Source: an uncultured Gammaproteobacteria bacterium (GTDB lineage: Bacteria > Patescibacteriota > Microgenomatia > 2-02-FULL-39-11). From it: a stretch of 64,000 bases of DNA. Below, in pieces: positions 18,274 to 64,000 of the stretch. A program made the translations under genes and the position numbers. Each line of letters starts with the position of its first letter. Within the stretch, counting starts at the first letter, position 1. A model generated the notes under the pieces. The model worked only from the letters and a program-made list of their open reading frames with translations. It did no database searches and had not been told where the DNA came from. Location: assembly GCA_964544585.1 (NCBI GenBank), contig CAZJBV010000003.1, positions 16,950 through 80,949 on the forward strand, given 5' to 3'.

Positions 18274-18315
18274 ATTAAAAAGTTAAATGCGTTGATTTCC
18301 ATTATAATACTATAT

Positions 18316-19266: not shown

Positions 19267-20216
19267 TGTTCTTAATTCAAACTATTATTTATCTTTTGTC
19301 CTTTATCGCGATCTGGCTAGGTGCCGGACTCATTGTCCGCTCAGCCGATAGGTTCTCCCATAAACTTCGTCTTTCCTCGTTTGCAGTTTCATTTTTTATA
19401 TTAGGCATGCTTACCTCAACCCCTGAATTTGCCGTAGGCATAACTTCTGTTGCAGAAGGAAATCCAGAAGTTTTTGTCGGAAATCTCATCGGCGGTATTC
19501 CCGTAATTTTTCTCTTTATCATCCCCATTTTGGCAATTTTTGGCAACGGGGTGAAATTGACTCACCAGCTTAGTAAAAAAAATCTTCTCCTTACCCTAGG
19601 AGTAATTCTTGCCCCCTCTCTTGCCGTAGGTGATGAAAACGTCACCCTGGTAGAAGGCATCATTTTAATTCTTCTCTATATCATACTTTTTTACGTCATC
19701 GAAAGGGAAAAAGGGGTATTTGATACAAATCATTCCAATATACTCAACATTCATTCCTACTCTTATAAAGATATTCTCAAAGTCCTTTTAGGTGTAGCCA
19801 TTGTTTTTGTATCAAGCCAGTTTATTGTAGACAAAACTCTACTCTTTGCTGATATATTAAGAATATCTCCCTTTTATATAAGTTTGATTATCCTCTCTCT
19901 CGGAACAAATCTTCCGGAATTAAGTCTAGCCGTACGTTCAGTCATCTCAGGAAAAAAAGACGTTGCCTTTGGTGATTATTTGGGGTCTGCCGCAGCCAAT
20001 ACCTTTCTCTTCGGATTATTTACAGTGATGAGTGTCGGCGAAACATTTGCCGTCCAAAGTTTCTTCAAGACATTTATTATCCTTTTAGCAGGATTATCTC
20101 TCTTTTATTTCTTTTCCAGATCCAAAAATGACATTTCTCGAAAGGAAGGAATAATACTCCTTAGCGTTTATATAATCTTTGTCATTTTTGAAGTCTTTTT
20201 TGCCACTAACCTATAG
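19254..20216 (+). CDS. Ca2+/Na+ antiporter (CaCA family, YrbG-like)
   Basis: Two alpha-repeat signatures, GNLIGG and GTNLPELSLAV, are present with about 10 TM helices. Confidence 0.7.
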   Translation: MGIIMFLIQTIIYLLSFIAIWLGAGLIVRSADRFSHKLRLSSFAVSFFILGMLTSTPEFAVGITSVAEGNPEVFVGNLIGGIPVIFLFIIPILAIFGNGVKLTHQLSKKNLLLTLGVILAPSLAVGDENVTLVEGIILILLYIILFYVIEREKGVFDTNHSNILNIHSYSYKDILKVLLGVAIVFVSSQFIVDKTLLFADILRISPFYISLIILSLGTNLPELSLAVRSVISGKKDVAFGDYLGSAAANTFLFGLFTVMSVGETFAVQSFFKTFIILLAGLSLFYFFSRSKNDISRKEGIILLSVYIIFVIFEVFFATNL

Positions 20217-39611: not shown

Positions 39612-41405
39612 ATGATCATTTTGCTCATTTTTGCCTTCCTGTCAGGGTTAGTTACAATTCTTGCTCCCTGCATTTGGCCGCTTTTACCAATAATTCTTTC
39701 TTCATCTGCAACCGGAGGAAGGGAAAAATCATTTGGCATTACCCTCGGTATCATGATCAGCTTTGCCATTTTTACTCTGACCATTTCCTATTTGGTTTCG
39801 CTTTTTAATATCGATCCAGATTTTCTTCGCCTTTTTGCCGTCATCGTCATCGGTTTTTTAGGACTCTCATTAGTAATTCCCCGACTTTCGGGAGTTTTAG
39901 AAGTCTGGGTCAGTAAAATTAGTAGCAAAATTAATCCAACCTCGTCCCAACCAAGAAGCGGTTTCTGGGGAGGACTTATTACCGGAGTTTCTCTTGGCAT
40001 TGTCTGGACTCCCTGCGCCGGACCTATTCTCGCAACTATCGCCACTTTATCAGCCACCCAGGCCGTAAACCTTTCCCTTGTTTTAGTAACTATTGTCTAC
40101 GTCACAGGAATTGGAATTCCACTCTTTTTCTTCTCCTACGGAGGTTCACTCCTTATTACAAAATCAAGAATACTTTCTCCCTATCTTGGTCGCATCCAGC
40201 AAATATTTGGCATCATCATGATTGCCACCGCCCTCGCCATTTTTACCAACTACGACAAAGTCCTTCAGGCAAAACTCCTAGATAGCGTCCCGGCCTATGC
40301 AGATTTTCTGGTGAAACTCGAAAGTAATCAAGAAGTTAAAAAACAACTCGACGTTTTAAAAGGCAAAAAGGAAACAGACGATATGACCGGAAAAGCCTTA
40401 AATCCAATTTCCGAAATGGGGCAAAATTTGTTACCCAAATATGGTCAGGCTCCAGAATTTGTTGGAATTGTTAAATGGTTAAATTTACCAGAAGGAAACC
40501 TGCCTGCCGGCAGGCAGGAAGAATCATTGACTATGTCACAACTCAAAGGCAAAGTAGTTCTTATCGATTTCTGGACTTATACCTGCATAAATTGTATTAG
40601 AACCCTTCCATATGTCACTTCCTGGTACGAAAAATATAAAGACGATGGTCTAATCGTCGTCGGCGTCCATACACCCGAATTTGAATTTGAGAAGAAGACA
40701 GAAAATGTAGAAAACGCTATTAGACAATATAAAATCACTTACCCAGTAGCCCAAGATAACGATTATAAAACTTGGGATGCTTATTCCAATAGGTATTGGC
40801 CGGCCAAATATTTAATCGATAAAGATGGAATTCTCCGCTACTACCACTTCGGCGAAGGAAAATATGAAGAAACAGAAGAAGCAATTAGAACCTTATTAAA
40901 AGATTTAGGGAAAGATATAGAAAAACCAATGCTTGACTTAACAGACGAAACGCCCAAAACGCGAAACACTCCCGAATCATATTTAGGCTCAAAAAGAATG
41001 GAATTCTATTATCCGGGAAGATTTCTTAACAATGGAAAACACAATCTAACACTCCCGGAAAACTTACCCGAAAACACATTTAGTTTCGGTGGAGATTGGA
41101 CCATCAAAGACGAGTACGCTTATGCGGGAAAAAATGCAGTCCTTGAGTTAAACTTCAATGCCAATAAAGTATTTTTAGTAATTCGTCCATCAGAATCACA
41201 AAAAAATTCAACCATGAAAGTTTTATTCGATGGAAAAGTTGTCGATAAAAATAATGCCGGAGTCGATGTCAAAGTTGGAATCGTAACTATAGATTCCGAT
41301 CGGTTATACAATTTAGTTGATTTAAAAGGAAGCCCAAGTCGTCACATTTTACGCCTCGAATTTCAAACAGAAGGAATATCCATCTATGCTTTTACCTTTG
41401 GCTAA
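39612..41405 (+). CDS. CcdA/DsbD-like thiol-disulfide transporter fused to TlpA/ResA-like thioredoxin domain plus extra C-terminal domain
   Basis: CcdA Cys residues sit in LAPCIWPL and WTPCAGP across 6-8 TM helices. These are followed by the redoxin motif FWTYTCINCIRTLP and an uncharacterised domain of about 170 aa. Confidence 0.7.
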   Translation: MIILLIFAFLSGLVTILAPCIWPLLPIILSSSATGGREKSFGITLGIMISFAIFTLTISYLVSLFNIDPDFLRLFAVIVIGFLGLSLVIPRLSGVLEVWVSKISSKINPTSSQPRSGFWGGLITGVSLGIVWTPCAGPILATIATLSATQAVNLSLVLVTIVYVTGIGIPLFFFSYGGSLLITKSRILSPYLGRIQQIFGIIMIATALAIFTNYDKVLQAKLLDSVPAYADFLVKLESNQEVKKQLDVLKGKKETDDMTGKALNPISEMGQNLLPKYGQAPEFVGIVKWLNLPEGNLPAGRQEESLTMSQLKGKVVLIDFWTYTCINCIRTLPYVTSWYEKYKDDGLIVVGVHTPEFEFEKKTENVENAIRQYKITYPVAQDNDYKTWDAYSNRYWPAKYLIDKDGILRYYHFGEGKYEETEEAIRTLLKDLGKDIEKPMLDLTDETPKTRNTPESYLGSKRMEFYYPGRFLNNGKHNLTLPENLPENTFSFGGDWTIKDEYAYAGKNAVLELNFNANKVFLVIRPSESQKNSTMKVLFDGKVVDKNNAGVDVKVGIVTIDSDRLYNLVDLKGSPSRHILRLEFQTEGISIYAFTFG

Positions 41406-51101: not shown

Positions 51102-51500
51102 TCAGATAAATTCATAAGATAGTTGTCTTCGATATGCAATAGTACCTAGTGGAATAACTTCTGTTGATGAATCCACTTGAAAAGTTTGTTCGTCAATAAG
51201 CACGCCTCTATGATTATCTTTAATTAACTCTAAATTAAGCTCACCTTGAGCAAAGTCCAACCAATAAATATAAAAGGAATAAATATTAAACAGTACTATA
51301 GTTCTATTCACCGAGTCAAACTGAATTTTCTGTCTTTCATCGGGAGTAAATTTTGCAAGTTGAGTAGGTACAAAACGATATAATTTACGTTCTTTAACCA
51401 TCGCACGCAATTTATTACTGCCTGCAACCATAAAAGTTAAAGCTCTCTTTTCATGGTTTGGCCTAGAAATCCCCCATAGAGTTTCATCCAGTGGACTCAT
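51102..51500 (-). CDS. hypothetical protein (start uncertain)
   Basis: The ORF track extends to 51605 but that stretch overlaps the tRNA-Tyr gene. An internal Met near 51500 is more plausible. Confidence 0.3.
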   Translation of the reverse strand: MSPLDETLWGISRPNHEKRALTFMVAGSNKLRAMVKERKLYRFVPTQLAKFTPDERQKIQFDSVNRTIVLFNIYSFYIYWLDFAQGELNLELIKDNHRGVLIDEQTFQVDSSTEVIPLGTIAYRRQLSYEFI

Positions 51501-51563
51501 TGAGGAAGTATTATAGTGCAGCGGAGGTCGTAGACAAAATAATATTCCAACAATCCTCTTCAG

Positions 51564-51646
51564 TGCCGGGACCAGGATTCGAACCTGGGAAGGCGTGAGC
51601 CACATGATTTACAGTCATGCCCTGTTGGCCGCTTAGGTATCCCGGC
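51564..51646 (-). tRNA. tRNA-Tyr (anticodon GUA), type II long variable arm, CCA not encoded
   Basis: The cloverleaf was folded by hand from the reverse complement. Acceptor GCCGGGA/TCCCGGC is perfect. The anticodon stem CATGA/TCATG closes loop CTGTAAA. The variable arm is 14 nt (GGC-tcac-GCC). T-arm is CCAGG-TTCGAAT-CCTGG. The discriminator is A. Confidence 0.9.
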
Positions 51647-51647
51647 T

Positions 51648-51856
51648 TGGAGCCATTATATCAAATAGCTCGCACCTATTTTATCAAAAATTTTTGAAAC
51701 TTGATACTTTATTAAACTGTAGCAAGAAAAAGGGGTTTAAGGGGAAAATGAATTGCTACAGTTTCGCCAATCATTAAGCCTCGCTTCGCTCGGCTTTCTT
51801 TTTGCTTAGCCCTCCTTTCGGTCGGGTCTTCGCCTTCTCTCTTTGGGAAATTTTCG
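51648..51856. repeat. 209-bp inverted repeat, left copy (IR-L)
   Basis: It is 100% identical to the reverse complement of 62772-62980 by base-by-base comparison. It begins 2 nt from the tRNA-Tyr 5' end. It contains an internal 12-bp inverted repeat AAACTGTAGCAA...TTGCTACAGTTT. Confidence 0.9.
51655..51663 (-). promoter_or_regulatory. extended -10 promoter (TGATATAAT) for tRNA-Tyr inside IR-L
   Basis: TGnTATAAT ends 9 nt upstream of tRNA-Tyr +1. Confidence 0.5.
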
Positions 51857-52490
51857 TTATAAGGAAGGGGAAATTATTTTATAGAGTATTAGGTTTTTCT
51901 GATTCCGTCACAGCCCACCCACCCAATTTTTAGATGTAGGCGACTTCCCCCGCTTTGGGCGAGAGAGCTCCCTATGGGGAGCTTCGCTGGAAGTCATCTT
52001 GTTTTATCATCTCTTTACAGTCTCTTACTCGCTTCGGGAAGAATCGTTATCCATCCATACAGTCTTCGTCCCTCCGCTCACCTTGAGTTTGATTTAGTAT
52101 CGCCTGCCGTCGCGGGGGATATCCGCTTCCCCCTTTCGCTCATCCCGACTTTTCATCGGGATTCGCTATGTTCCCCCTTCCTGTGCTGGCTGGTCATCCC
52201 GCCATTGACATCGGCGGGATTCCGCCAGCACTAGGTGGGGGAGCCCCCGCCGCCTGATTTCTATCCCTTCCAGTGTCCGGTCGGCTCGTATCCCGCCTTT
52301 AGTCGGGATACTTCGCGCCTAGTTCGGACCGCTCACCCCGCGTTATCTTTATATAATGTATATCTCGCGGGGTTCGCCTTTGTCGGGAGCACTCTTACTT
52401 TATCTATTTGCCTTGATAGTCTTTCTGTCGTGCTCCCTCCTTTTAGGAAGCTACTATCCGATGGGGGCGGGGTCGGCGGATGTCGCCAAC
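51857..52490. ncRNA. GC-rich, hairpin-rich non-coding region (candidate large structured RNA)
   Basis: Local GC content is far above the genome background. Overlapping low-complexity ORFs fall on both strands with no protein-like sequence. There are several perfect 7-8-bp hairpins (AGCTCCC-TATG-GGGAGCT, ATCCCGCC-N9-GGCGGGAT, GTATCCCG-N8-CGGGATAC). Pyrimidine tracts and a TATAAT occur near 52352. Confidence 0.3.
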
Positions 52491-52850
52491 TTGGCCAATT
52501 ACTTTTTCCACTTGGCCATTTTCCACCATTTTGGCCAAGTTTCTTTTTCTGTTGGCCAATTAACTTGGCCAATTGGTGCATGGGCTTGTCCTGAGGCAAG
52601 TCGGAGGATATACTGGATTTATGAGTGACGATATTGGCCAATCAACAGATACATCTTCGGCTCCTCCGGTTTCCGATGTTCCATTGGCCAATACGCCAGA
52701 TTCCACTTGGCCAATTTCCACCAAAATGGCCAATGACCAACTACAAGAAGCATCACCATCTGGCCAATCAGCTAAAACTCCATTGGCCAATAACGATTCT
52801 GCATCGTCTCCGGACTTGGCCAATCAGGATGCAACCAGTTCTGGCCAAGT
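52491..52850. repeat. array of the palindrome TTGGCCAA(T), at least 13 copies, frequently about 21-bp spaced
   Basis: Exact or near-exact copies start at 52491, 52512, 52531, 52552, 52565, 52634, 52685, 52706, 52726, 52760, 52783, 52816 and 52840. Outliers are near 53100 and 53146. Copies occur in all three frames of the overlapping CDS, translated as LAN, WPI or GQS. Confidence 0.85.
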
Positions 52851-53685
52851 TACGACTTCACTAGACGCTTCTTCATCTCCCAATTTACCTAATCAGTCAT
52901 TACCGGCCGATTCCACTTCTTCCATATCTCCCCAACCTGCCTCGCCGGTAGACGGGTCACCCTCATCACTCCAATCTCCCACAGATAATTTACCCTCGCC
53001 TATTTCTGTTCCTTCACCATCAGTTGAACCATCCCAAATGCAATCCAGACCGTCAGATAGTCCTTCTCAAGATACTACAACTTCTACTCCTCCCGACTTG
53101 GCCACTATCAAGCCGGTGTCTCCACAAAGCCCCCAAAACACCTCATTGGCCAATGACAATTCTCAAAAAACAGAAGAAATTAAGCCCACATCTCCTCCCA
53201 AAAGTTCTTTTGGCGATATCCTAGCTAAAGAAAATCCGCCATCTTCATCTAATCCTTCTCCTCCTTCTACTTCTTCTAATCCTCCTAAACCGTCATCTTT
53301 CGGAAATATCCTACGAGGATACAGTTCTTCATCCCAATTAGACCAATCTTTGCATGATGAACCCAAAATTAATATAGAACCCGTCGTCCCACCAAAGCCA
53401 TCTCCGGCTGTTACTCCCCAGATCCCCCAACCACCCCAATTTCCCTTATCTCCCAATACAAGTGGCCTCCGCCAAAAAGCCAATCAAAAGCGACTCGACA
53501 AAAAACAAAAGAATCTCGACAGAATTATGCTCCTTATTAAAGAAACGGGAACTATCACAAACACAGATGTTCAAAGACTTTGTAGAGTTTCTCAAAGTAC
53601 GGCCACCAACTATCTTACTGAGCTGGAAAAGAAAGGTATGCTCAAACAAAAGGGTATTCGCGGTGGAGCAAAATATACTTTATGA
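52621..53685 (+). CDS. S/P/T-rich low-complexity protein with C-terminal winged-helix DNA-binding domain
   Basis: The Met at 52621 has a GGAGG SD 13 nt upstream. About 300 aa of disordered Ser/Pro-rich sequence carries a duplicated PxSSFG(D/N)IL motif. The C-terminus MLLIKETGTITNTDVQRLCRVSQSTATNYLTELEKKGMLKQKG is wHTH-like. Confidence 0.5.
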   Translation: MSDDIGQSTDTSSAPPVSDVPLANTPDSTWPISTKMANDQLQEASPSGQSAKTPLANNDSASSPDLANQDATSSGQVTTSLDASSSPNLPNQSLPADSTSSISPQPASPVDGSPSSLQSPTDNLPSPISVPSPSVEPSQMQSRPSDSPSQDTTTSTPPDLATIKPVSPQSPQNTSLANDNSQKTEEIKPTSPPKSSFGDILAKENPPSSSNPSPPSTSSNPPKPSSFGNILRGYSSSSQLDQSLHDEPKINIEPVVPPKPSPAVTPQIPQPPQFPLSPNTSGLRQKANQKRLDKKQKNLDRIMLLIKETGTITNTDVQRLCRVSQSTATNYLTELEKKGMLKQKGIRGGAKYTL

Positions 53686-54242
53686 AATCTAAACCCAGTG
53701 CACAAAACAAAAAGTCAGGGAAAAACAAATATGTCCTTGTTCCTCTTGCGCTTCTTTTATCTCTTTCCTCCTTTTTCGCAGGAACAAAGTATGAGAGCGA
53801 GATTAAAGATGCGATTGAAAACCAACCGGTTATAAATCAACAGCAGATCATAGAGTTTCCCACGGAAGCCAAAATTAAAAGAGTTATAGATGGAGATACT
53901 CTCGAGTTACAAAATGGACAAATCGTGCGACTTGTCGGAGTTAATACACCGGATCATGGACAACCATATGATGAAGAATCCACAGAGTTTACCAAAAAAC
54001 TCGTTGAAGAGAAAAAAGTAAATATTGAATATGATGAGTATAAATCAGACAGATTCGGAAGAATTCTTGCATACGTAGTAATAAACAACAAAAACCTCTC
54101 CATTGAATTAGCCAAACGAGGATTAGCCAAAGTTACTATCTACGAAAAAAGAAAACCACTTATTTATCAAGAGCAATTATTAAATGCCGAAAAAGAAGCA
54201 AAATTAAAAAAATTAGGTATTTGGAAAGCAGGTGATAAATAA
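53682..54242 (+). CDS. staphylococcal (micrococcal) nuclease homologue, secreted or anchored
   Basis: It has an N-terminal signal/TM segment. SNase motifs DGDT, RLVGVNTPD and DRFGRILAYV are present. Confidence 0.75.
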   Translation: MKSKPSAQNKKSGKNKYVLVPLALLLSLSSFFAGTKYESEIKDAIENQPVINQQQIIEFPTEAKIKRVIDGDTLELQNGQIVRLVGVNTPDHGQPYDEESTEFTKKLVEEKKVNIEYDEYKSDRFGRILAYVVINNKNLSIELAKRGLAKVTIYEKRKPLIYQEQLLNAEKEAKLKKLGIWKAGDK

Positions 54243-54523
54243 TGGATTTTCAAATAGCAGCTTTACAATTTTTATCAGGTGGCATGGGAGGATTAGTCAG
54301 AGCAGTTGTTGGTATCACTAAAGCCAAAGAATTCGATCCCGAAAAATTCAAATTTCAGTGGAAATATTTCGCAATCACTATTATTGTGTCTATAATCACC
54401 GGTCAAATGGCTGGACTTATTGCAAATGCCGACTGGCGTATGTCCTTATTAGCTGGCTACGCAGGGAGTGATTTTTTGGAGAGCCTATACAAATTAAGAT
54501 TTGCACAATTTTTTAAGTCATGA
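54242..54523 (+). CDS. small hypothetical membrane protein
   Basis: The 93-aa product has two hydrophobic segments. It is translationally coupled to both neighbours. Confidence 0.35.
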   Translation: MDFQIAALQFLSGGMGGLVRAVVGITKAKEFDPEKFKFQWKYFAITIIVSIITGQMAGLIANADWRMSLLAGYAGSDFLESLYKLRFAQFFKS

Positions 54524-54577
54524 AGATATAGACTTAGAAATTTAAAATAAATATATTATTTTATCTTTAGATTTATA

Positions 54578-55939
54578 ATGGCTATTAAAATTAGTAAGAG
54601 CCCACAATTAATTTTTTCTGCACGAGCTTTAATTTTTATTGCAGTTTCCTTCTTGTTTTATCTACTTATAAATTATTTTTATCTTAAGTATACCGCGATA
54701 AATGAAATCCAAGATTACTTAAAGAATGCCAATAATAGGATAGTCTCTGACTTAGCTTATAAAAATGATAAGTGGGACACGACAGCGTATATAAATGATA
54801 GTCAAACAATTCAGGATAATCCTTTATATATATTAACAATAGATGGATTTGTTATCGACAGAATTAAACCAATAAATGGCTTTCTTGATACGTCCGATTT
54901 TATGTTTGGTTCTTCTTTTACAACTCCCAAAACTGTTTCAATCTTAGAAAGTGAAACATGGAGGTTGTATTCAAAAAAAATAATTAGAGAAAATAATATA
55001 TTTGGTACTATACTAGTGGGAGATTTCCAACCGGAAACCACAGAATTAAAAAATATAGATGATGAACTAATTAAGACAGCAGATATGATATTATCTCAGA
55101 TTAAGATCAGTAATAGTGAAATTGATATCTCAGAACTGGATTTAAAAAGAATTAATGTCAGACATTACGTAGAAATAATTGATAGATTTAATCGCTCAAT
55201 AGAAAGCGTTGGTAGTGGAATACCAGCTTATATTGATAGAAGTTATGTTGCAAATGAATTAAACGAAAATTATAAGACAGTTTATGATACGAAGAGTAAA
55301 GAGCCTTTCCTAGTATACTCAAAACCTATTTTCGATATGTCAAATGATCCAATTGGTATAGTTATAAGTGGCTATTCGCTAAAACAAATCTTCATGAATC
55401 TTAGAAACCAGCTTATCTTTTTAACCATAAGTGGTTTGTCAGTAATTATATTTATATTCATATTTCTGATTCTTATATTTCAAAGAAATTTAGCATTTTT
55501 AATCAAGAATCCAAGAGCTGCGCTATTTGGCTTTTCTGGGAAACACGATGAGGCAAATTCAAAAATGGTCCTTGAGGTGGACCAAAATATAGACGGTACA
55601 GTCGTAATAAACTTCCAGGGTAAATTATATAAAATTAGTAAGCCGGAATTTGATAGTGAATCAGATCAACTAATTGAAAGATTAATGGATTTGGTTCAAC
55701 CAGATACTAAAGAGATTGAATATGATGGTTTAAAAGATGAGCAATTAAAATTAAGTACCCCTCTGAGCAGACTTGTAACAAGGCTTGGATTTGTTGGATT
55801 AAAAAGAGACTTATTTTTTCCTCGTACATCTAAACAGAGAGTTTATTTTCGAAGATATCTGACACACAATGACTTAGTAGTTATGAATATAACTACTGAG
55901 CAAATTCTTACTGATCTATTTGTATCTTCGCAAACTTAG
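54578..55939 (+). CDS. two-TM membrane protein with large extracytoplasmic domain and about 140-aa cytoplasmic tail (sensor-like, no recognisable output domain)
   Basis: TM1 spans about aa 17-37 and TM2 about aa 285-310. No catalytic motif was recognised. Confidence 0.35.
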   Translation: MAIKISKSPQLIFSARALIFIAVSFLFYLLINYFYLKYTAINEIQDYLKNANNRIVSDLAYKNDKWDTTAYINDSQTIQDNPLYILTIDGFVIDRIKPINGFLDTSDFMFGSSFTTPKTVSILESETWRLYSKKIIRENNIFGTILVGDFQPETTELKNIDDELIKTADMILSQIKISNSEIDISELDLKRINVRHYVEIIDRFNRSIESVGSGIPAYIDRSYVANELNENYKTVYDTKSKEPFLVYSKPIFDMSNDPIGIVISGYSLKQIFMNLRNQLIFLTISGLSVIIFIFIFLILIFQRNLAFLIKNPRAALFGFSGKHDEANSKMVLEVDQNIDGTVVINFQGKLYKISKPEFDSESDQLIERLMDLVQPDTKEIEYDGLKDEQLKLSTPLSRLVTRLGFVGLKRDLFFPRTSKQRVYFRRYLTHNDLVVMNITTEQILTDLFVSSQT

Positions 55940-56154
55940 CAAACTAAAACTAGGTCTACACAGGTCGGCATAAGTCTTTTTATATCTCACAAGCCTCATT
56001 TAATTACATATCTTTTAAGATGAGATTATCAGCAAAACAAATTATAAATTTATGAATTATTAACTGAAAAAAATGTTTCATCCTTATATATCGGCAATAA
56101 TCTTTATTTTAATTTGGCTACTAATTATAGTGTTATTATTTAAGACTTTATAAT

Positions 56155-56919
56155 ATGTTAAAAATTTCTGGAAAAAATTTAGCAGAATTAGCTTTACCAA
56201 ATACTTGTTCTACTTGCTTTAGAATTAAGGTAAATTTGGACGCACAAATGAGTATCGAGCGTAAGAAAATTCCCTATCAAATGCCTATGCCAGGAATTTT
56301 CGCTAATTTAGATTCGCATATAAAACAAGTTGTAAAACATTATTTTGAAATGCATGGTAGAGTGCCTTCATGGTTTCCAAATATTGGAAGCCAAATAGTT
56401 AGCATTGAATCTCCACCAGGCTGGCAAAAATTCAACGCTTTTATTTCTGAATATAACATCTTTTTGACTGGCGCTCTTGATGTCGTTTTTAAATTAAATG
56501 ATGGTTCATTTGCGTTTGGTGATTATAAAACAGCAAGATTCTCTGAAATGCACGATAGTTTAATACCCTTATACAAAGCTCAATTACATAATTATCTAGA
56601 AATTGCAAAAAGAAAAGGAATTTTTACTCCTGTTTCTAAGTTATTTTTAATTTATGCAGAACCCCTGGACTATAAACCTTACGATGGAATATATCAACTC
56701 ACAGATTTCGAGAAGCTTTTTAAATTGCATTTCAGAGTCATACCAAAACTATTAGAAATCGATACTTATTTGACAGAAAACTTATTAAAGAAGGCTCGCT
56801 CAATTATGAGTAAGCATAATCCTGAAGCATTACCTAATTGTCCAAATTGCGCTTTGAGGACGAGGCTATATAATGAAGAATGTTTGCTAAGATCATCTAA
56901 TAAAGAACAAATAGTATGA
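56155..56919 (+). CDS. putative PD-(D/E)xK-fold nuclease with CxxC...CxxC
   Basis: The core reads GALDVVF...FAFGDYK (D...D-x-K). It has an N-terminal CSTC and a C-terminal CPNC. Confidence 0.4.
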   Translation: MLKISGKNLAELALPNTCSTCFRIKVNLDAQMSIERKKIPYQMPMPGIFANLDSHIKQVVKHYFEMHGRVPSWFPNIGSQIVSIESPPGWQKFNAFISEYNIFLTGALDVVFKLNDGSFAFGDYKTARFSEMHDSLIPLYKAQLHNYLEIAKRKGIFTPVSKLFLIYAEPLDYKPYDGIYQLTDFEKLFKLHFRVIPKLLEIDTYLTENLLKKARSIMSKHNPEALPNCPNCALRTRLYNEECLLRSSNKEQIV

Positions 56920-59900
56920 ATAACTCTATATTAAATTTTATAAGATATTGCCTTAGTTACGTAAAATTAACCAGAAACCGAACTATACTAGATCAGCAGA
57001 AATACTCTGTTGATCTTCCGATGGATTATTTTGGGTTACTTGGTTTATTAAACGGAGATACGGATGAAAAGAATGGTGAGTTAATAAACCTAAAAACTTT
57101 CTATTCCTACGATCCCAAAAATGTTCCAGATGATGAGTTAAGTATTTATGAGAAAGAAAAAGAATTAGCAAACAAGATCGAGGAAATTTATAACAAATAT
57201 CGTAACGACCAATATACAAAGCAAGTAATTTTAAGTTTTGGATATTTCGAAATTGAAATTCCTATCGAAGAGAATGGCGACGTTGTTACACAAGCGGAAC
57301 AAGAGTCAGACGAAAAGCTAACTAAAACCAAAGTTGATCGCTATCCGCTTTTTTCATTACCGGTGAGAATAGAGAAAGAAATTCGCCAAATTGGAGTTGG
57401 AGAATATCTAGTTTACTTCGTTGATCCTGAAGTTCAAGTAAATATCGGAATACTAGAACCATTACTAGGGGAAGATCTATATTTTCAACTTTTGGAAGAA
57501 ATTGGGAAATACGAAATTGAAGGAAGACTAACATTACCAATATTAGATTTAGAAATATTTAAAGAGATTTGGCACAAAATAAAGGCACAATTGCGCTTAA
57601 AAAATGCCAAATTTAATGAACAATCTTTTTCATTAGAAGAAGTAAAAATAGCCCTTGGCCCCAAAGCAAATTACTTCCTCGCAGAGGATCTAGCTAAATT
57701 GAGTCAATTAACAGAGGAAGAGCTTTCTAAAACTGCCCTTACATGTTGGACAGAAGATGAAGGATTAAATGTTGAAAGTGATATTCCACAAGAAAAAGAT
57801 TTATATTTTCCCTTTTTATATGATAAATATCAGCTCTCCTCTCTATCAATACTTGGAAACGTCGCCTCAATTGTTCAGGGACCACCTGGAACAGGAAAAT
57901 CGGAAACGATTTCAAATATACTTTGCCACCTAGCTGCCACTGGAAAAAAAGTTTTATTCGTTAGTCAAAAAGCACAGGCTCTTAAGGTTGTTAAAGATAA
58001 ACTAAAAAAGCTAGAAATAAGGTATTTATTTGGATATTTGCCTAACCCAAATTCTGCTCAAATCGGAGAAGAGGATGAAGCTGACGGTATTGCGCCTCAA
58101 CTGAGCGCTATTGGTTCACATATAGAAAAGATGAGTTTTACACAATATTCAAGTTCTAAATTCGCTCGCTATGTAGATAAAAGTGAAGTAGCTAGCTTGA
58201 TTCATTCTGCTGTTGAAGAAAAAACTGTTAAACGAACTTCATTGAATAGCGTAATTAATGCTCAGAGAAAATATTATCAACTAAACCAAGAACTTTTAAA
58301 TCTTAAAGAATATGACATTGACATTACTGATTTTAGTTATTTCACTCAAACATTCTCATCATTTGAGTGGCAGGAAATCAAGAAAGCAAAAGCGGAAATA
58401 GAAAATCTTAGTGAAATAATAAAAAAATATGAACTAAGTAATGAAAAAAAGGAATATGATAGTCTTTTTCCTTCACTCAATAGAAACCTTGGAGAAATCG
58501 CTGACCAGATTGGAACTATCAGAGATGATGTTGATAAAACAGGTTTTGACCGTCATTCAAAATTTTTGAGAAAAATAAATAACATGAGCCGCGATTTCCG
58601 TCTTAGTAATATTCGTGGAAAGCTCCCACGAGAGATTATCGATCATGTAGATAATATTTTACAAGCTGATAAATCAAGAAGCGAGCAAATAAAATTACTC
58701 GATAATCTCTATAATCATTGTTCCTATTTCAAAAACATTCGGATGCTTAATGGATTTGAAGAAGCCTTAAATCAAAGATTAAATATATGTGGTGTTTCAG
58801 ATAAAGAATTTAAAATTATAGATGAAAAAATTAACAAATCTGCTTCTGCATCTTTAGACGATATCAAAGCTAAAATCCTACGAGTTCAGGAAATAAAATA
58901 TGAACTAGAAATGCTCAAAAAGACTGAAAGCCCAAATAAGATATCTTTAGCAGTGAAGCGTTTCGAACAAAACAGAGTAAAACGTGTGGGGCAATATATT
59001 CAAAATATTATTAATCAAGGAATACTTGAAAAATGGAGGTCAGGTGTAACAATTAAGCAAATTGTAAGAAAACTAGCTAGTGCTTTTGGAAAATCAAAAA
59101 AGGCATTCAAGACCTTTGATAATCTACGTAAAGACATAAACAATTTTAATGCAATTCTTGATTTGATTCCTATTTGGATCATGGAACTCGATGATGCAAG
59201 TCGCATTATTCCACTTGAGGTTGGCATTTTCGATTATGTAATTTTAGATGAAGCATCGCAATGTAATGTAGCATATACCTTGCCAGTCATGTACAGGGCG
59301 AAGAAAATATTATTTGTGGGAGATAGTGAACAAATGCGAGATAGTACTATAATGTTTAAGTCTAATAGGGTTTTTGATGAACTTGCTCGCAGATATCAAA
59401 TTCCTGAGGAAAGACAAATAAAAGCGACTGGAACTTCAGTGCAATCTGTCTTGGATATTGGTTATAAACGAGGTTTCATGGATCGTCCACTTAGATATCA
59501 TTATCGGTCGCCTGCAGAATTAATTGGCTTTAGTAATAAATACTTCTACAAACCAAAAGGTAAAGAATTAATACCAGTTAATAACAATTACCTATCTTAT
59601 AAAGATACGAACCGTATAATGTTTGTACATGAGGTTAAATCTAATTGGAAGGAAGAATTCTCTGATAACATAAACGTTGCAGAGGCAAACAGAATACTTA
59701 AGCTTTTTAAAGAATTGCGAAGTGATATTCGTTATCGAGATAAATCTATTGGTATTTTAACTTTCTTTAATGCACAAGCTGCTTTTATCCGAGATCTTTT
59801 TGAAAAAGAAGGTTATAAAGAAGAAGAGGATAATTACAAAATTAGCATTATTGAAGGTATACAAGGAGACGAAAAAGATATTGTTTTTTACTCATTTGTT

Positions 59901-60479
59901 ATTAGATCCATTGAACAGAAAAATAAGTACGTACCTCTAACTGGTGAAGGAGGAGATCTCCGATCAGATATAAATAAGGGTCGAGTGAATGTTGCTTTTT
60001 CGCGAGCAAAACTACAAGTGCATTGTTTTGTTAGTCTTCCACCTAATGAAATGCCAGAAAGAATTTGGCTAAAGAAATACCTTGAGTATATACATGACAA
60101 TGGTGCAGTTGAATTTTATTCAGATGATCTTAAAACTTTTGATTCCTATTTTGAAGAAGAATTTTATGCGTTATTGCGAAAAAACTTAAAGCGTGGTCAT
60201 AAGATCCAAAATCAGGTAAGAAGTTGTGGATTTAAAATTGATTTTGTTGTTAGCAATTTAAATTCTGGAAAACGTTTAGCGATCGAGTGCGACGGTCCAT
60301 GCCATTTTAAAGATGAATTAGATGAGTCATATGGCATCTATGTGGGAAGCGATGAAGAAAGACAAGCTGTACTAGAAGCTGCTGGATGGAAGTTTTGCCG
60401 GATCAAATATTCAGATTGGATTGACGAAAAATTTGATCGCAATATTGTTACTCAATCAATAATGAATTTACTAAAATAA
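56916..60479 (+). CDS. Upf1-like SF1B helicase with N-terminal unknown region and C-terminal DUF559 (Vsr/restriction-endonuclease-like) domain
   Basis: Walker A is GPPGTGKS, motif II is VILDEASQ, motif V is GIQGDEKDIVFYS, and motif VI is GRVNVAFSRAK. The C-terminal domain reads KRLAIECDGPCHF...AAGWKFCRIKYSDW. Total length is 1187 aa. Confidence 0.75.
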   Translation: MNNSILNFIRYCLSYVKLTRNRTILDQQKYSVDLPMDYFGLLGLLNGDTDEKNGELINLKTFYSYDPKNVPDDELSIYEKEKELANKIEEIYNKYRNDQYTKQVILSFGYFEIEIPIEENGDVVTQAEQESDEKLTKTKVDRYPLFSLPVRIEKEIRQIGVGEYLVYFVDPEVQVNIGILEPLLGEDLYFQLLEEIGKYEIEGRLTLPILDLEIFKEIWHKIKAQLRLKNAKFNEQSFSLEEVKIALGPKANYFLAEDLAKLSQLTEEELSKTALTCWTEDEGLNVESDIPQEKDLYFPFLYDKYQLSSLSILGNVASIVQGPPGTGKSETISNILCHLAATGKKVLFVSQKAQALKVVKDKLKKLEIRYLFGYLPNPNSAQIGEEDEADGIAPQLSAIGSHIEKMSFTQYSSSKFARYVDKSEVASLIHSAVEEKTVKRTSLNSVINAQRKYYQLNQELLNLKEYDIDITDFSYFTQTFSSFEWQEIKKAKAEIENLSEIIKKYELSNEKKEYDSLFPSLNRNLGEIADQIGTIRDDVDKTGFDRHSKFLRKINNMSRDFRLSNIRGKLPREIIDHVDNILQADKSRSEQIKLLDNLYNHCSYFKNIRMLNGFEEALNQRLNICGVSDKEFKIIDEKINKSASASLDDIKAKILRVQEIKYELEMLKKTESPNKISLAVKRFEQNRVKRVGQYIQNIINQGILEKWRSGVTIKQIVRKLASAFGKSKKAFKTFDNLRKDINNFNAILDLIPIWIMELDDASRIIPLEVGIFDYVILDEASQCNVAYTLPVMYRAKKILFVGDSEQMRDSTIMFKSNRVFDELARRYQIPEERQIKATGTSVQSVLDIGYKRGFMDRPLRYHYRSPAELIGFSNKYFYKPKGKELIPVNNNYLSYKDTNRIMFVHEVKSNWKEEFSDNINVAEANRILKLFKELRSDIRYRDKSIGILTFFNAQAAFIRDLFEKEGYKEEEDNYKISIIEGIQGDEKDIVFYSFVIRSIEQKNKYVPLTGEGGDLRSDINKGRVNVAFSRAKLQVHCFVSLPPNEMPERIWLKKYLEYIHDNGAVEFYSDDLKTFDSYFEEEFYALLRKNLKRGHKIQNQVRSCGFKIDFVVSNLNSGKRLAIECDGPCHFKDELDESYGIYVGSDEERQAVLEAAGWKFCRIKYSDWIDEKFDRNIVTQSIMNLLK

Positions 60480-60565
60480 TTATATTCAATTTATGTTTGA
60501 ATTTAAAAAGGTAAACAAAAGTAAAGTGGAAGAAAATTTGATATAGAACTAAATGGAGTAAATTA

Positions 60566-61399
60566 ATGAAAGATAAATATTCAGCAATTTGGGTCTCACA
60601 CTCATCAATAAGTGATTATCTCAAGTGTCCCCGAGCTTATTATCTCAAAAACGTATATAAGGATCCCAAAAATAATCACAAAATAAATATCATGTCTCCT
60701 TCATTAGCTTTAGGCCAAACAGTACATAAAGTCATTGAGTCTATATCTACTCTTCCGGTAGAAAGAAGATTTGAAAAGTCCCTTCTCGATCTTTACGAGA
60801 TATATTGGCAAAAGATATCGGGCGAAAAAGGAGGATTTAGTCATAAAGATGAGGAAGAAAACATCAAACAACAAGGAAAGGAAATGATACAGAGAGTAAT
60901 TAATAATCCGGGTCCTTTAAAAAGAAAAGCTATAAAAATTAGAGAGGACTTACCTTATTTTTGGTTATCAGAAGTTGACAATATTATTCTTTGCGGGAAG
61001 ATAGATTGGTTGGAATATATAGTCGAAAGCGATAGTGTGAAAATTATAGATTTTAAAACTGGTAAGTATGATGAAGACCCAAATTCACTTCAATTGCCTA
61101 TTTATCATTTATTGGTCAAAAATAGCCAGTCAAAAAACATTGTAGGTGTAGCTTACTGGTACTTGGATAGAGATAATGAACCCATAGATGCTTCTTTACC
61201 ATCCTATCAAGAAGCAAGTCAGAGAGTATTGGAAATTGCTAAACACATTGTGTTGGCGCGAAAATTAGAACGGTTTGTATGTGGAAGAAGAGACGGATGT
61301 ATGTTTTGCCATCCATTTGAGACAATTCTTGTGGGAAAAGCTAAATTTGTTGGTGAAGATGATTTTCGTCATGATTTATACGTTATTTCACATAGATGA
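60566..61399 (+). CDS. Cas4/RecB-like PD-(D/E)xK nuclease with four-Cys cluster
   Basis: An N-terminal Cys sits in YLKCPRAYYL. The nuclease core is GKIDWL...IIDFKTGK with a QLPIYHLL QxxxY motif. The C-terminus carries CGRRDGCMFC (C-x5-C-x2-C). Confidence 0.6.
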   Translation: MKDKYSAIWVSHSSISDYLKCPRAYYLKNVYKDPKNNHKINIMSPSLALGQTVHKVIESISTLPVERRFEKSLLDLYEIYWQKISGEKGGFSHKDEEENIKQQGKEMIQRVINNPGPLKRKAIKIREDLPYFWLSEVDNIILCGKIDWLEYIVESDSVKIIDFKTGKYDEDPNSLQLPIYHLLVKNSQSKNIVGVAYWYLDRDNEPIDASLPSYQEASQRVLEIAKHIVLARKLERFVCGRRDGCMFCHPFETILVGKAKFVGEDDFRHDLYVISHR

Positions 61400-61662
61400 T
61401 TATCAAAATAGTATTAAAAATTGATATAGTGTCTTTTCTTGAAAATAGAGTGGCTTTATTTGGTGTTTGGTACTTATCTTTCCGTAAACAGAAGCATAAG
61501 GCGAAAGATATTTTGGATAAGATTGCTATTTTCACTCTCCATTTTCTTGGTATCTTTTCACTTTTTTATCTTAAATCAATAGCCTTTATTTTATGTCTTA
61601 TCTATCGTTTATCTTCTGGGATTACTAAAGATAAGTTAGATCACTGGCTGAATAAAAAATGA
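61396..61662 (+). CDS. small hypothetical membrane protein
   Basis: The 88-aa product is hydrophobic. It overlaps both neighbouring genes (ATGA junctions). Confidence 0.35.
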   Translation: MIIKIVLKIDIVSFLENRVALFGVWYLSFRKQKHKAKDILDKIAIFTLHFLGIFSLFYLKSIAFILCLIYRLSSGITKDKLDHWLNKK

Positions 61663-62756
61663 ATCTTAAGAAAATATTTAATTTTAAATTTAATTTTTTA
61701 GTATTAGTTGTTATTTCTTTTTACTTTTTCTCAATCCAAATGAATTTCATAAATAAAAGACTTGATAAAATAGAAAATAAATTAGGCGGTACCAAAAAAA
61801 TTACCTGCAATGAAAAGGATACTATAGAAAGAGTCCGGCAGTCGGTGGTAAGGATAATTGGCGGGGAATCAGAAGGATCAGGCTTTGCCATCAAAGAAAA
61901 CGGATTAATACTGACTAATTTTCATGTCATCCAGTTTGAACCGAGCCCAAAAGTGGTTTTGCCGGATAATACTTTTCAAACTGCGGAAATTATCATGGCG
62001 GATAAGAATTCCGACCTTGCAATAATAAAAATAAAAAGAGATTTACCCGTTATATCCTGGGGTGAGCCATCAGAACTTGATCCTGCTGAGGAACTTCTGG
62101 CTATAGGGTTTCCTCTGGGCGGCATACTTAAAGGTGAAGCATCCGTCAATAAAGGATCATTATCAGGCAGAAGAAGATCAAAAGATGTGGGAGTTGAGTA
62201 TTTACAGACAGATACTACGCTTACTCAAGGAGTAAGCGGAGGGCCGATGACCAATATCTGCGGTGAGGTTGTAGCTATCAATACAGCCGGATTATCCGGA
62301 TTGGGTTTGGGAATATCAGCCGATTCCATCAAACAGAAATGGCTCGAGATGGCCACCGCCAAAGACTCGCTTAAGGATGTACATAAAATTACTTTTGAAC
62401 CTGATAAAAGTCCGCTGGAAGCAGTACGTGCCTTTTATAATTATCTTAAAGCAAGAAAGCTGGAAAAAGCTTTTGAACTTTTATCCGATAATTTCAAGAA
62501 GGGCTACAGTTTTGATAACTGGAAAAAAGGATATGAACCTCTTTTGGATACTACAGTTATCAAAATAGACGATGACAAAGAGAATGAAAACAGGGTAAAT
62601 ATTAAACTTTCCACAAAAGATATGGTAAGTGATGAAATAGTTTATAAATATTTTGAAGGTTACTGGGATGTGAAAAGTGCGGATGGAAAATGGCTGTTAT
62701 GGGATCCGGAAATTAAAGAAGTTATAAAACCGGATTTCTTTTGGTTTTACGAATAA
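61659..62756 (+). CDS. trypsin-like (S1 family) serine protease with N-terminal signal anchor and about 150-aa C-terminal extension
   Basis: The catalytic triad context is TNFHV (His), DLAII (Asp) and GVSGGP (Ser). The stop lies 15 bp before IR-R. Confidence 0.65.
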   Translation: MNLKKIFNFKFNFLVLVVISFYFFSIQMNFINKRLDKIENKLGGTKKITCNEKDTIERVRQSVVRIIGGESEGSGFAIKENGLILTNFHVIQFEPSPKVVLPDNTFQTAEIIMADKNSDLAIIKIKRDLPVISWGEPSELDPAEELLAIGFPLGGILKGEASVNKGSLSGRRRSKDVGVEYLQTDTTLTQGVSGGPMTNICGEVVAINTAGLSGLGLGISADSIKQKWLEMATAKDSLKDVHKITFEPDKSPLEAVRAFYNYLKARKLEKAFELLSDNFKKGYSFDNWKKGYEPLLDTTVIKIDDDKENENRVNIKLSTKDMVSDEIVYKYFEGYWDVKSADGKWLLWDPEIKEVIKPDFFWFYE

Positions 62757-62771
62757 GAGTCATAAAAATTT

Positions 62772-62980
62772 CGAAAATTTCCCAAAGAGAGAAGGCGAAG
62801 ACCCGACCGAAAGGAGGGCTAAGCAAAAAGAAAGCCGAGCGAAGCGAGGCTTAATGATTGGCGAAACTGTAGCAATTCATTTTCCCCTTAAACCCCTTTT
62901 TCTTGCTACAGTTTAATAAAGTATCAAGTTTCAAAAATTTTTGATAAAATAGGTGCGAGCTATTTGATATAATGGCTCCA
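62772..62980. repeat. 209-bp inverted repeat, right copy (IR-R)
   Basis: Its reverse complement equals 51648-51856 exactly. Confidence 0.9.
62965..62973 (+). promoter_or_regulatory. extended -10 promoter (TGATATAAT) inside IR-R, reading outward
   Basis: This is the mirror copy of the tRNA-Tyr promoter. Confidence 0.45.
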
Positions 62981-63046
62981 TCTCCCGACTTGTCGGGGCC
63001 GCCCGAAGGGCGGCCCAGGGAGGAAGCGCGTTCCCACCTGCTTTTG
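62981..63046 (+). ncRNA. candidate small GC-rich RNA made of three consecutive hairpins
   Basis: The hairpins are CCCGA-CUUG-UCGGG, GGCCGCCC-GAA-GGGCGGCC and CAGGGA-N10-UCCCaCCUG, followed by CTTTTG. It starts where the tRNA starts in the mirror copy. Confidence 0.3.
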
Positions 63047-63293
63047 TATCTTTTAAGAAAATTAGCGTAAAGATTCAATGATACTCGAAAAATTCTACTA
63101 AAACATAGAGTTTTTCGTTATTAACTCTCCCTTGCGATGTTTTATTCCTCCGATTATCACCGGAGGAAACTTTGCCTTTACACTGAAAAATGCATCAGCA
63201 TTTTTTACGTGCAAAAAAATAAAAAGAATTTTTGCTCCGGTTTGATTTATTTAATCATATTGTAAAATCTTTCATCTCATATATATTTATGAT

Positions 63294-63361
63294 GCACACA
63301 AAATATTCCTGTTGAGATTTTTAGTGGCCGTCCTGGTACAGATCTCAACAGATTTGTGTGC
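63294..63361. promoter_or_regulatory. imperfect 68-bp palindrome upstream of the serine recombinase gene (candidate recombination site or operator)
   Basis: GCACACAAA..CTGTTGAGAT - 22-nt centre - GATCTCAACAG ATTTGTGTGC. It ends 25 bp before the recombinase ATG. A NotI-like GCGGCCGC lies just downstream. Confidence 0.4.
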
Positions 63362-63385
63362 AACCGGGGCGGCCGCTTGAAATTT

Positions 63386-64000
63386 ATGAATATATCACCT
63401 GTCAATCATTCAATAATTAAATCTCATAGAAATTATTTGAAGCTAGGGTTACCTATTCAGCAAAAATTCTTTTTATATGCGCGCAAGTCAACAGATGTAG
63501 AAGATAAGCAGATACAATCAATAGAAGCACAATTAGTCGAACTTCGTGAATTTGCAAAACGGGAGGGTTTTCAAATTGTAGAGGAGCTCATTGAAAAACA
63601 ATCAGCCAAGATACCGGGTCGGCCAGTTTTCAATTCGATGATAGAGCGAATTGAAAAGGGTGAAGCCTCCGGTATCTTGGCCTGGCATCCGGATAGACTT
63701 GCGCGAAATTCTATTGACGGAGGAAAAATTATATATCTTATCGATACGGGTAAAATCAAATTCTTAAAATTTCCACAATTTTGGTTTGAGTCTACCCCGC
63801 AAGGTAAATTTATGCTTTCAATTTCGTTTGGGCAAAGTAAATACTTTGTGGATTCCCTCTCAGAAAATACCAAGCGTGGTCTTCGCCAAAAAGTGAGAAA
63901 GGGAGAATTTCCCAGTCTTGCACCCGTAGGATATCTCAATGACACGAGAACCAAAACGATTGTACTTGATCGAAAAAAAGCTTCTGTTATTAAAAAGCTC
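63386..64000 (+). CDS. large serine recombinase (3' partial, runs off window)
   Basis: I translated it by hand; it is missing from the ORF track because no stop falls in the window. The product begins MNISPVNH. It carries YARKSTDVEDKQIQSIEAQ (catalytic Ser context) and AWHPDRLARN. The recombinase-domain GY is in APVGYLND. Confidence 0.7.
   Translation, partial: MNISPVNHSIIKSHRNYLKLGLPIQQKFFLYARKSTDVEDKQIQSIEAQLVELREFAKREGFQIVEELIEKQSAKIPGRPVFNSMIERIEKGEASGILAWHPDRLARNSIDGGKIIYLIDTGKIKFLKFPQFWFESTPQGKFMLSISFGQSKYFVDSLSENTKRGLRQKVRKGEFPSLAPVGYLNDTRTKTIVLDRKKASVIKKL

Follow-up and report, generated by a model that had tools for sequence, protein, structure and literature searches.

The DNA analysed here is a stretch of 64,000 nucleotides (contig CAZJBV010000003.1, positions 16,950 to 80,949; referred to below as the window) from a Candidatus Gottesmanbacteria genome of the Candidate Phyla Radiation (CPR). 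It contains most of a genomic island of about 13.3 kb, which runs from window position 51648 to about 930 nt past the window end. With a probability of roughly 0.75, the island is an integrative element of a large serine recombinase (LSR) inserted at a tRNA-Thr(UGU) gene, and two perfect 209-bp inverted arms within it are two copies of a single module, termed P. As read from the sequence, the insertion point is the encoded CCA end of tRNA-Thr(UGU), between tRNA-Thr and tRNA-Tyr. A first-pass annotation had read the segment as a block that was probably acquired and lies next to a large serine recombinase gene. Its foreign origin is supported, as is its mobilization by this recombinase or at least an association with it.

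On the tRNA strand the order of parts is tRNA-Thr, core and T arm; the LSR gene (antisense); an inverted P-core-T module; the cargo; and then P, core and tRNA-Tyr. The parts outside the cargo are located in the window as follows.

51563–51646, minus strand: tRNA-Tyr(GTA), found by ARAGORN and Rfam; host flank B′ of the island.
51648–51856, minus strand: left P arm (IR1-L), the attR-like end; its outer ~109 nt are homologous to many related loci.
62772–62980, plus strand: right P arm (IR1-R), which supplies the P half to the intact attP-like P-core-T site inside the island; TGATATAAT points rightward.
62974–63061, plus strand: core GGCTCCA and T arm (IR2-L), consisting of three hairpins and a T-run; a perfect inverted copy lies beyond the window.
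63062–63385, plus strand: leader of the recombinase gene; its last ~100 nt (63282–63383) are conserved.
63386–64000, plus strand: N-terminal 205 codons of the LSR; the full gene has 536 codons and ends ~1 kb past the window.

Two pairs of inverted repeats are present. The pair at 51648–51856 and 62772–62980, which had been claimed to be perfect over 209 nt, was confirmed to be 100% complementary; the spacer between its arms is 10,915 nt and it is the sole long repeat in the 64-kb window. The second pair is also perfect, is 88 nt long and matches 62974–63061 to positions 13031–13118 of L040, a record of the same contig that extends past the window (the sequences used for comparison carry handles of this form). 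This 88-nt partner covers the 3′ end of the LSR open reading frame (ORF) and the last 7 nt of the convergent tRNA-Thr(UGU). What had been annotated as a small hairpin RNA to the right of the right arm is in fact one arm (62974–63061) of this second repeat, with a terminator-like site at 63018–63035. A signal recognition particle-like or tRNA-like RNA was considered for the same region and rejected, as no model matched and the region copies the LSR 3′ end and the tRNA trailer. Rfam at gathering score reported two tRNAs only in the whole window, and its E-value mode applied to 51400–53800 and 62700–63500 gave chance-level matches only.

The two repeat pairs overlap by the seven nucleotides GGCTCCA (62974–62980). 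This core is found at three junctions, namely between P and tRNA-Tyr, between P and T in the internal site, and between tRNA-Thr and T. It forms the final bases of tRNA-Thr and also stands between the −10 element of the left arm and tRNA-Tyr, the outermost 7 nt of that arm being TGGAGCC. The pattern is consistent with an attL on the tRNA-Thr side, an attR on the tRNA-Tyr side and an intact attP-like site in the interior. The element ends share the short core only with each other and with the attP-like site, and no long direct repeat is present. The earlier statement that no flanking direct repeat is visible holds for the segment bracketed by the 209-nt arms (51648–62980) and fails at the true ends of the element, where GGCTCCA is a 7-nt direct repeat.

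Both arms carry at their outer end the outward promoter-like sequence already noted in the first-pass annotation, TGATATAAT, at 51655–51663 (minus strand) and 62965–62973 (plus strand). The left copy points into tRNA-Tyr, which abuts the arm as had been described (its end, 51646, is one base outside the arm). The extended −10 motif TGnTATAAT occurs eight times in the window, several of the copies being directly upstream of gene starts (e.g. 7534 and 13806). The conserved part of the recombinase gene leader (63282–63383) contains two hairpins and was recovered using blastn at 79–82% identity in L052, L054, L070 and L074, which suggests a regulatory 5′ leader of the integrase gene.

The adjacent recombinase had been assigned to the large serine type, and the DNA beyond the window confirms a protein of 536 amino acids. 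Matches were obtained to the Resolvase (PF00239, 5e-22), Recombinase (PF07508, 5e-14) and Zn_ribbon_recom (PF13408, 3e-10) domains, and the best PHROG match is integrase phrog_95 (6e-73). The enzyme has the three domains and the length of more than 400 amino acids by which an integrase-type LSR is recognized. Its ORF reads through T′ and stops inside the antisense of tRNA-Thr(UGU), with no stop before the tRNA. The ORF likewise lacks a stop before the tRNA in 61 of 63 related loci and ends in or past the antisense of the target tRNA (here L040 13031–13179). Since the stop codon of the integrase lies in target DNA, its C-terminal tail must differ between the integrated and the excised state.

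The family of this enzyme is large, with 2,827 proteins at E ≤ 1e-20 and at least 568 confirmed stretches in the Joint Genome Institute (JGI) metagenome collection. For comparison of the loci, a set of 80 public metagenome loci with LSRs 59–71% identical was taken from among the matches listed, using the full LSR as the query. A convergent tRNA was located at the LSR 3′ end in 64 of the 68 loci with at least 100 nt of 3′ flank; 21 anticodon types were represented, Gly being the commonest. The T/T′ repeat surrounds the LSR gene at 58 of the 59 loci with at least 450 nt of 5′ flank and extends 3–8 nt into the tRNA in 44 of 51. P-arm homology directly adjoins the upstream T arm at 44 of 58 loci. 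In 41 aligned related modules P, core and T are contiguous and share a strongly conserved consensus. This consensus starts with TTTTTGATAAAATAnGTTCGAGC, ~4 nt and a TTTGTAnAnT-like −10, followed by the core, after which come a variable hairpin, a conserved GGGCGGCGC/GCGCCGCCC hairpin, a GC hairpin and a T-run. Compensatory changes were observed at four of the seven pairs of the GGGCGGCGC/GCGCCGCCC hairpin.

The double-repeat layout itself is also found elsewhere. A P/P pair that abuts the T arm and brackets 0.6–8.3 kb was identified in L059, L076, L081, L084, L089, L092, L100, L118 and L121/L122. In L059, L076, L084 and L118 the three junctions share a core of 3–6 nt that equals the last bases of the target tRNA; in L081 the same sharing is obtained only if the left arm is extended by eye into the printed flank. 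L084 is a minimal element of 2.43 kb that has both repeat pairs, its P arms being only 633 nt apart. The GTDB genome L027 has the same arrangement around an LSR of 52% identity, with 163-nt arms 93% identical to each other. In L096 the LSR 3′ end is followed by T′, TGGAGCC, an inverted P and a GC-rich cargo start, with no tRNA, and tRNA-less joints of this kind were also found in L086 and L125. Such joints are of the attP type expected on excision; the contigs are so short that a flipped integrated isomer would look the same as a circle.

Long inverted repeats enclosing a block of genes would also be the mark of a classical transposon, whose ends are long inverted repeats and whose transposase duplicates the target site; a transposon-like element of this kind was one of the two architectures first envisaged. 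This explanation is scarcely credible here. No transposase family was found among the nine cassette proteins in family and profile scans, the bases outside the arms are not a direct duplication, and the right arm runs on into the conserved module upstream of the LSR gene. The arms are not the ends of the element, which continues through the LSR to tRNA-Thr and to which the right arm is internal. A fixed and syntenic arrangement in which the repeat is simply a duplicated tRNA promoter, named beforehand as the outcome that would refute the first-pass reading, was likewise not what was found: the arm is a module borne by dozens of elements in other hosts.

The reality of the arms was examined using independent assemblies. 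A chimeric metagenome join at a repeated tRNA promoter could create an inverted duplication, and a collapsed repeat would also yield perfectly identical arms. The GenBank record JACPKX010000017.1 (GCA_016186845.1; L005, L040), which holds the same contig, is without window positions 51789–51849 (61 nt of the left arm) and also without ~62914–62989 (~76 nt on the side of the right arm, including the promoter and core), leaving a repeated length of only 74 nt; that its deletions differ between the arms counts in favour of an artefact. Logan unitigs (k = 31), which are unable to cross the 209-nt arms, break at the edges of the 209-nt repeat in at least four other samples of the same project. Unitigs L133, L134 and L137 end at 51677, 30 nt inside the outer end of the left arm, and L001–L003 end at 62801, 30 nt inside the inner end of the right arm; L004 spans the entire right arm and ends at its final base, 62980. 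The GenBank version would predict a break on the tRNA-Tyr side near 51744, in contrast to the observed 51677. An assembly artefact is very improbable, as unitigs built independently from several samples stop 30 nt within the arms on three sides. Moreover, dozens of contigs assembled in other studies and with other assemblers show the same architecture with arms diverged to 80–99.6% identity, and an artefact cannot explain this. The window version was favoured over the GenBank record on the basis of the unitig break points and the homology to at least 40 related elements; the record is probably misassembled locally inside the repeat and probably wrong in both arms.

For the origin of this layout we propose that a circular form integrated via an LSR-mediated crossover within the core. 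Integration would have parted tRNA-Thr from tRNA-Tyr, presumed to have been its immediate downstream neighbour. The T hairpins would terminate transcription from the tRNA operon and from P, sparing the LSR gene antisense read-through, while the outward promoter of the terminal P arm would restore the expression of tRNA-Tyr, cut off from its upstream promoter. Ahead of the LSR gene, the internal P-core-T module would provide a promoter plus an attenuator, and perhaps also an operator bound by the LSR. The inverted P arms would act as handles for flipping or swapping the cargo bay. The attP of the predicted circle would match the internal P-core-T site over 290 nt. The predicted empty-site joint of tRNA-Thr and tRNA-Tyr reads ...TTCGATTCTCCGGGAAGGCTCCAAGCCGGGATACCTAAGCGG..., and a Thr(tgt) to Tyr(gta) tandem on one strand was seen in L117 (an indirect observation, at another locus).

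The segment between the arms contains the following features.

51857–52620, no strand assigned: GC-rich (50–61%), non-coding, hairpin-rich start of the cargo, including a 32-nt palindrome.
52621–53685, plus strand: winged-helix (wHTH) DNA-binding protein of 354 amino acids with a long Ser/Pro-rich N-terminal region; backbone.
53682–54242, plus strand: staphylococcal-nuclease-like (SNase-like) protein with an N-terminal hydrophobic segment (Pfam SNase, 2e-23); backbone.
54242–54523, plus strand: 93-aa protein with weak, sub-threshold holin matches, a putative membrane protein; backbone.
54578–55939, plus strand: 453-aa protein with long hydrophobic stretches and no family match; variable cargo.
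56155–56919, plus strand: 254-aa protein with a weak Cas4-like PD-(D/E)XK match (PADLOC Cas4b, 4e-5); overlaps the helicase start by 4 nt.
56916–60479, plus strand: superfamily 1 (SF1) helicase (AAA_11/AAA_12) with a C-terminal MTES_1575/DUF559 endonuclease, 1187 amino acids.
60566–61399, plus strand: PD-(D/E)XK Cas4-like nuclease of 277 amino acids (Pfam PDDEXK_1, 7e-20; PADLOC Cas4 models).
61396–61662, plus strand: 88-aa hydrophobic protein, an ORF with overlapping junctions and no family match; variable cargo.
61659–62756, plus strand: Trypsin/HtrA-like serine protease with an N-terminal hydrophobic segment (Pfam Trypsin_2, 2e-24); under the cut-off of the NCBIfam DegP/HtrA subfamily.

All nine genes are on the plus strand, as had been described; of the eight junctions, which had been described as overlapping, five do overlap, and the other three are spacers of 55, 216 and 87 nt. 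The cargo begins on the left with ~765 nt of non-coding DNA. The GC content of the cargo is 30–33%, compared with 35–40% across most of the flanking genome.

The cargo is a mosaic of a backbone module and a variable defence-like set (the helicase-nuclease, two PD-(D/E)XK nucleases and the protease). The backbone module, which comprises the GC-rich stretch, the palindrome and the wHTH, SNase-like and 93-aa proteins, is common to at least six other elements. Homologues of the wHTH protein, in which Pfam MarR/HTH_24 was matched at residues 317–358 of the 370-aa ORF scanned, were found in L069, L072, L073, L076 and L011. Copies of the SNase-like protein are 48–51% identical in L069, L073, L076, L085 and L107, and those of the 93-aa protein are 58–61% identical in L069, L072, L073 and L076. 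No copy of the 453-aa protein was found in the related loci compared. The recurrence of the wHTH, SNase-like and small membrane proteins elsewhere, the occurrence of the helicase alone in 34 species and the unshared remaining genes contradict the earlier view that the cassette was acquired as a single block. In L069, inverted copies of the region comprising P, the GC-rich stretch and the wHTH backbone (1–1757 and 17633–19322; 82–93% identical over more than 1.6 kb) flank ~15 kb with two integrase-like stretches, which is a nested or duplicated arrangement.

The GC-rich stretch (51890–52500, ~600 nt, 50–61% GC against 36% for the genome) gave folding z-scores of −7.7 and −7.5 for the two strands relative to shuffled sequences and matched no Rfam family. 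It shows patchy conservation adjoining the P arms of L076, L069 and L072; possible roles are those of a structured RNA, a region for replication or one for binding. The 32-nt palindrome CACTTGGCCATTTTCCACCATTTTGGCCAAGT (52509–52540), located ~80 nt upstream of the wHTH gene, is a candidate operator, and it is conserved together with patches of the surrounding DNA beside the P arms in L076, L069, L067, L072 and L114. The motif TTGGCCAA occurs ten times in 52491–53153, with additional TGGCCA variants, where 1.8 copies would be expected across the whole window; the cluster extends from the promoter region through the 5′ half of the wHTH gene, the part encoding the Ser/Pro-rich region. In sister elements TTGGCCAA is present only as two copies inside the 32-nt palindrome. 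A peptide repeat was ruled out as its cause, as the motif occurs in all three reading frames, and the cluster looks like a DNA-level array, possibly of binding sites.

Relatives of the helicase, 48–76% identical, were found in 34 species (L006–L039) with unrelated neighbours; the hosts belong to CPR phyla, Omnitrophota, Chlamydiia, Bdellovibrionales, Babeliales, Nitrospiraceae and Ignavibacteriae. The gene lies within a few kilobases of a homologous serine recombinase in L013, L027 and L012 and is adjacent to it in L013 and L027. The 254-aa weakly Cas4-like protein is absent beside the helicase in the 34 other species. The helicase-endonuclease looks like an often-transferred single-gene module and is candidate anti-phage cargo. 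It shares with Hhe, ProA and PDC-S37 the SF1 core and a C-terminal Vsr/DUF559-type endonuclease (PADLOC PDC-S37, 7e-72; NCBIfam ProA, 6e-70). Its scores are far under the curated cut-offs (ProA, 236 bits against 1500; Hhe, 152 against 2000). Only the C-terminal two thirds of the models were matched, the N-terminal 300 amino acids are unrelated, and a full-length Hhe/ProA match, which would include the N-terminal DUF4011 region, was not obtained. A conserved operon or defence system spanning the cassette was considered and rejected, since no two settings of the helicase agree with the cassette among the 34 species, its neighbours being different in each, and the PADLOC matches were partial and confined to single genes. 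A phage origin was also rejected: no IMG/VR relative was found by protein or by the conserved P motif, and structural PHROGs were absent.

The opposite orientation of the cargo, which the first-pass annotation had suggested looking for in relatives, was found relative to the recombinase in L100 compared with L089. The 4.4-kb cargo is in opposite orientation (83% identity) and the LSR units are in the same orientation (82%), with break points inside the P arms; the two elements are inserted at different tRNAs. The wHTH module lies against the distal arm in the window, L076 and L072 and against the proximal arm in L073. L092 and L100 share the arms and the LSR (85%) and differ in cargo. That of L092 (679–5198) is a complete trpD-trpC-trpF-trpB-trpA set, and that of L100 (238–4270) and L089 (373–4404) encodes NAD synthase, CN-hydrolase, an ATP-grasp protein and Orn/DAP decarboxylase. 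Since biosynthetic genes are usually scarce in CPR genomes, metabolic cargo such as the trp operon would be notable. Comparison of these sequences supports the view that the DNA between the P arms has been flipped and replaced over evolutionary time among relatives. RecA-type homologous recombination would be a more likely route for flipping and swapping than LSR catalysis because, to our knowledge, canonical LSRs do not recombine attP with attL or attR.

Inversion could in principle serve phase variation, with the LSR flipping the 10.9-kb segment to alter expression in the manner of the serine DNA invertase systems (Hin/hix, Gin/gix and Pin; e.g. PinQ, PMC12529663). A recombinase beside a segment bracketed by a long perfect inverted repeat, the two cargo orientations among related elements and the PHROG ‘DNA invertase’ matches of the LSR catalytic domain are all features that such a switch would share. 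It is nevertheless improbable. Enzymes of the Hin/Gin/Cin/Pin type have ~190 amino acids with a C-terminal helix-turn-helix and act at ~26-bp sites, whereas the present recombinase is a 536-aa protein of the integrase type and the arms are 209 nt long. Its position beside a tRNA 3′ end, shared with the relatives counted above, is a signature of integration. In the invertase systems inversion rejoins a gene with its promoter or constant part; here both arms have the same outward promoter and the cargo genes face the inner end of an arm either way. Since the layout is symmetric, inversion swaps no promoter-gene relation and a regulatory switch is unlikely. Of the recombinase-invertible segment first envisaged, the flipping of the interior among relatives stands.

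Several results weigh against the interpretation of the island as a single LSR element inserted at tRNA-Thr and carrying two P copies. Upstream flanks longer than 3 kb were available at 18 loci; at 11 of these the distal P arm was not within reach, and none was found in the available flank of 14 related loci without the second repeat, so that the double-repeat layout is established for part of the family only. A simple sigma-70 scanner gave no promoter call for P, in which the TTGATA-TATAAT spacing is 21 nt; as the scanner was silent, the extended −10 is what the promoter function of P rests on. The LSR segment between T and T′ was flipped at none of 58 loci, from which it follows that inverted repeats alone do not guarantee inversion. 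Given the limits of canonical LSRs stated above, the internal intact site has no obvious purpose and LSR-catalysed inversion is hypothetical. No circular form of the window element was seen. The empty site, with tRNA-Thr directly followed by tRNA-Tyr, was not found among homologues of the flanking methyltransferase; in the nearest available relative this methyltransferase is only 53% identical and the contig starts at tRNA-Thr, and more distant Gottesmanbacteria have a different gene order around it. The segment bracketed in L057 resembles host DNA, and some bracketed segments may be host DNA. Finally, the intact tRNA-Thr differs from an apparently native remnant nearby, and the site history therefore goes beyond a single insertion.

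This remnant is the 5′ half of a second tRNA-Thr(UGU) at L040 ~13250–13310, ~65 nt past the intact gene and ~1.1 kb past the window end. Over 37 nt it is identical to the tRNA in L045, the nearest relative. The gene breaks off directly behind the anticodon, and the 20-nt palindrome CCTGCCTGCCGGCAGGCAGG interrupts it; neither the window nor 8.8 kb of downstream sequence contained the missing 3′ half. A GC-rich palindrome with the core CCTGCCGGCAGG is present at window positions 7452–7489 and 40482–40519 and also at L040 ~13266–13285. Its full 20-nt form occurs at 40500–40519 and in L040, and Logan unitigs break there too. One possible reading is a small, repeated hairpin element, another a shared terminator.

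A rival explanation assumes two independent events, with the left arm as a solo P remnant of an older element copy and the interior not being the cargo of one element; the loci without a distal arm count in its favour. In L057 (1–7650) arms of 80% identity, comprising P, core and T, bracket two tRNA-Arg genes, a BtpA/APH fusion and an arginyl-tRNA synthetase gene; these are either captured host genes or part of a chromosomal segment with an element on each side. L084 and L085 have two LSR elements close together, which again favours separate events. For the present island such a history is unlikely. The arms are 100% identical over 209 nt, and the left arm adjoins tRNA-Tyr, the expected neighbour of the tRNA-Thr at the other end. 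The interior is low in GC and begins with the backbone module that adjoins the P arms in sister elements, and the minimal element L084 already has both arms. A single LSR element with two P copies remains the preferred interpretation.

Compared with known systems, this element resembles those of the phage-type serine integrases phiC31, Bxb1 and A118 and the staphylococcal/enterococcal cassette chromosomes (SCC; CcrA/CcrB). The enzyme has the same three-domain structure, with an integrase as its best PHROG match; the insertion site is defined and lies at the 3′ end of a conserved gene; and there is a short common core at both ends, no long direct repeat and variable cargo. The island differs from these systems in that the CCA ends of many different tRNA genes are targeted, that the LSR ORF crosses the junction without an earlier stop codon (as in the 61 of 63 relatives), and that a second intact attP-like module, in inverted orientation, creates two abutting inverted-repeat pairs. 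It also differs in the outward promoter of the terminal arm beside the downstream host tRNA and in the lack of phage structural genes and of a recognizable directionality factor. The island does not belong to SCC: the N-terminal 205 amino acids of the LSR match CcrB and CcrA with E values of 1e-14 to 1e-12, far under the cut-offs (CcrB, 53 bits against 900), and the target is a tRNA gene rather than rlmH (orfX).

The 2-micron plasmid is eukaryotic, and its Flp protein is a tyrosine recombinase acting at FRT. The predicted island circle would likewise have two inverted site copies and two invertible halves, one of which encodes the recombinase. The differences are the serine instead of tyrosine recombinase and the absence of any replication or copy-number amplification seen here; a complete circle was not observed. 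The tycheposons of Prochlorococcus are integrative elements that carry cargo and sit at tRNA genes (Hackl et al., bioRxiv 10.1101/2020.12.28.424599). They are similar in their integration at tRNA sites and in their niche and defence cargo. Unlike the tycheposons, the island is in a different host phylum, shows no hallmark replication genes (primase, polymerase) and is inserted at the very last bases of the tRNA gene, leaving no partial copy of the tRNA; no description of a double inverted-repeat layout was found for tycheposons.

In full-text literature searches no paper was found that ties serine recombinases to mobile elements of CPR/Patescibacteria. The island belongs to an abundant family for which no description was found and which functions like a serine-integrase genomic island. 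A bolder possibility, which we consider doubtful at present, is that CPR bacteria host an abundant class of integrase elements in which two inverted promoter-core-terminator modules are used by the integrase itself to insert at the CCA end of tRNA genes and to flip and swap cargo ranging from defence nucleases to trp operons, with an integrase tail that varies with the integration state. If true, this would be a natural form of recombinase-mediated cassette exchange. The family is also a possible resource for genome engineering: each element displays an attP-like module together with its tRNA 3′ target, giving dozens of natural integrase/site pairs of the kind used for the insertion of large DNA. 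The layout of the island accounts for the frequent breaks of CPR assemblies beside tRNA genes. For the biology of the hosts, the family carries defence-like genes and, in relatives of the present element, metabolic operons into very small genomes.

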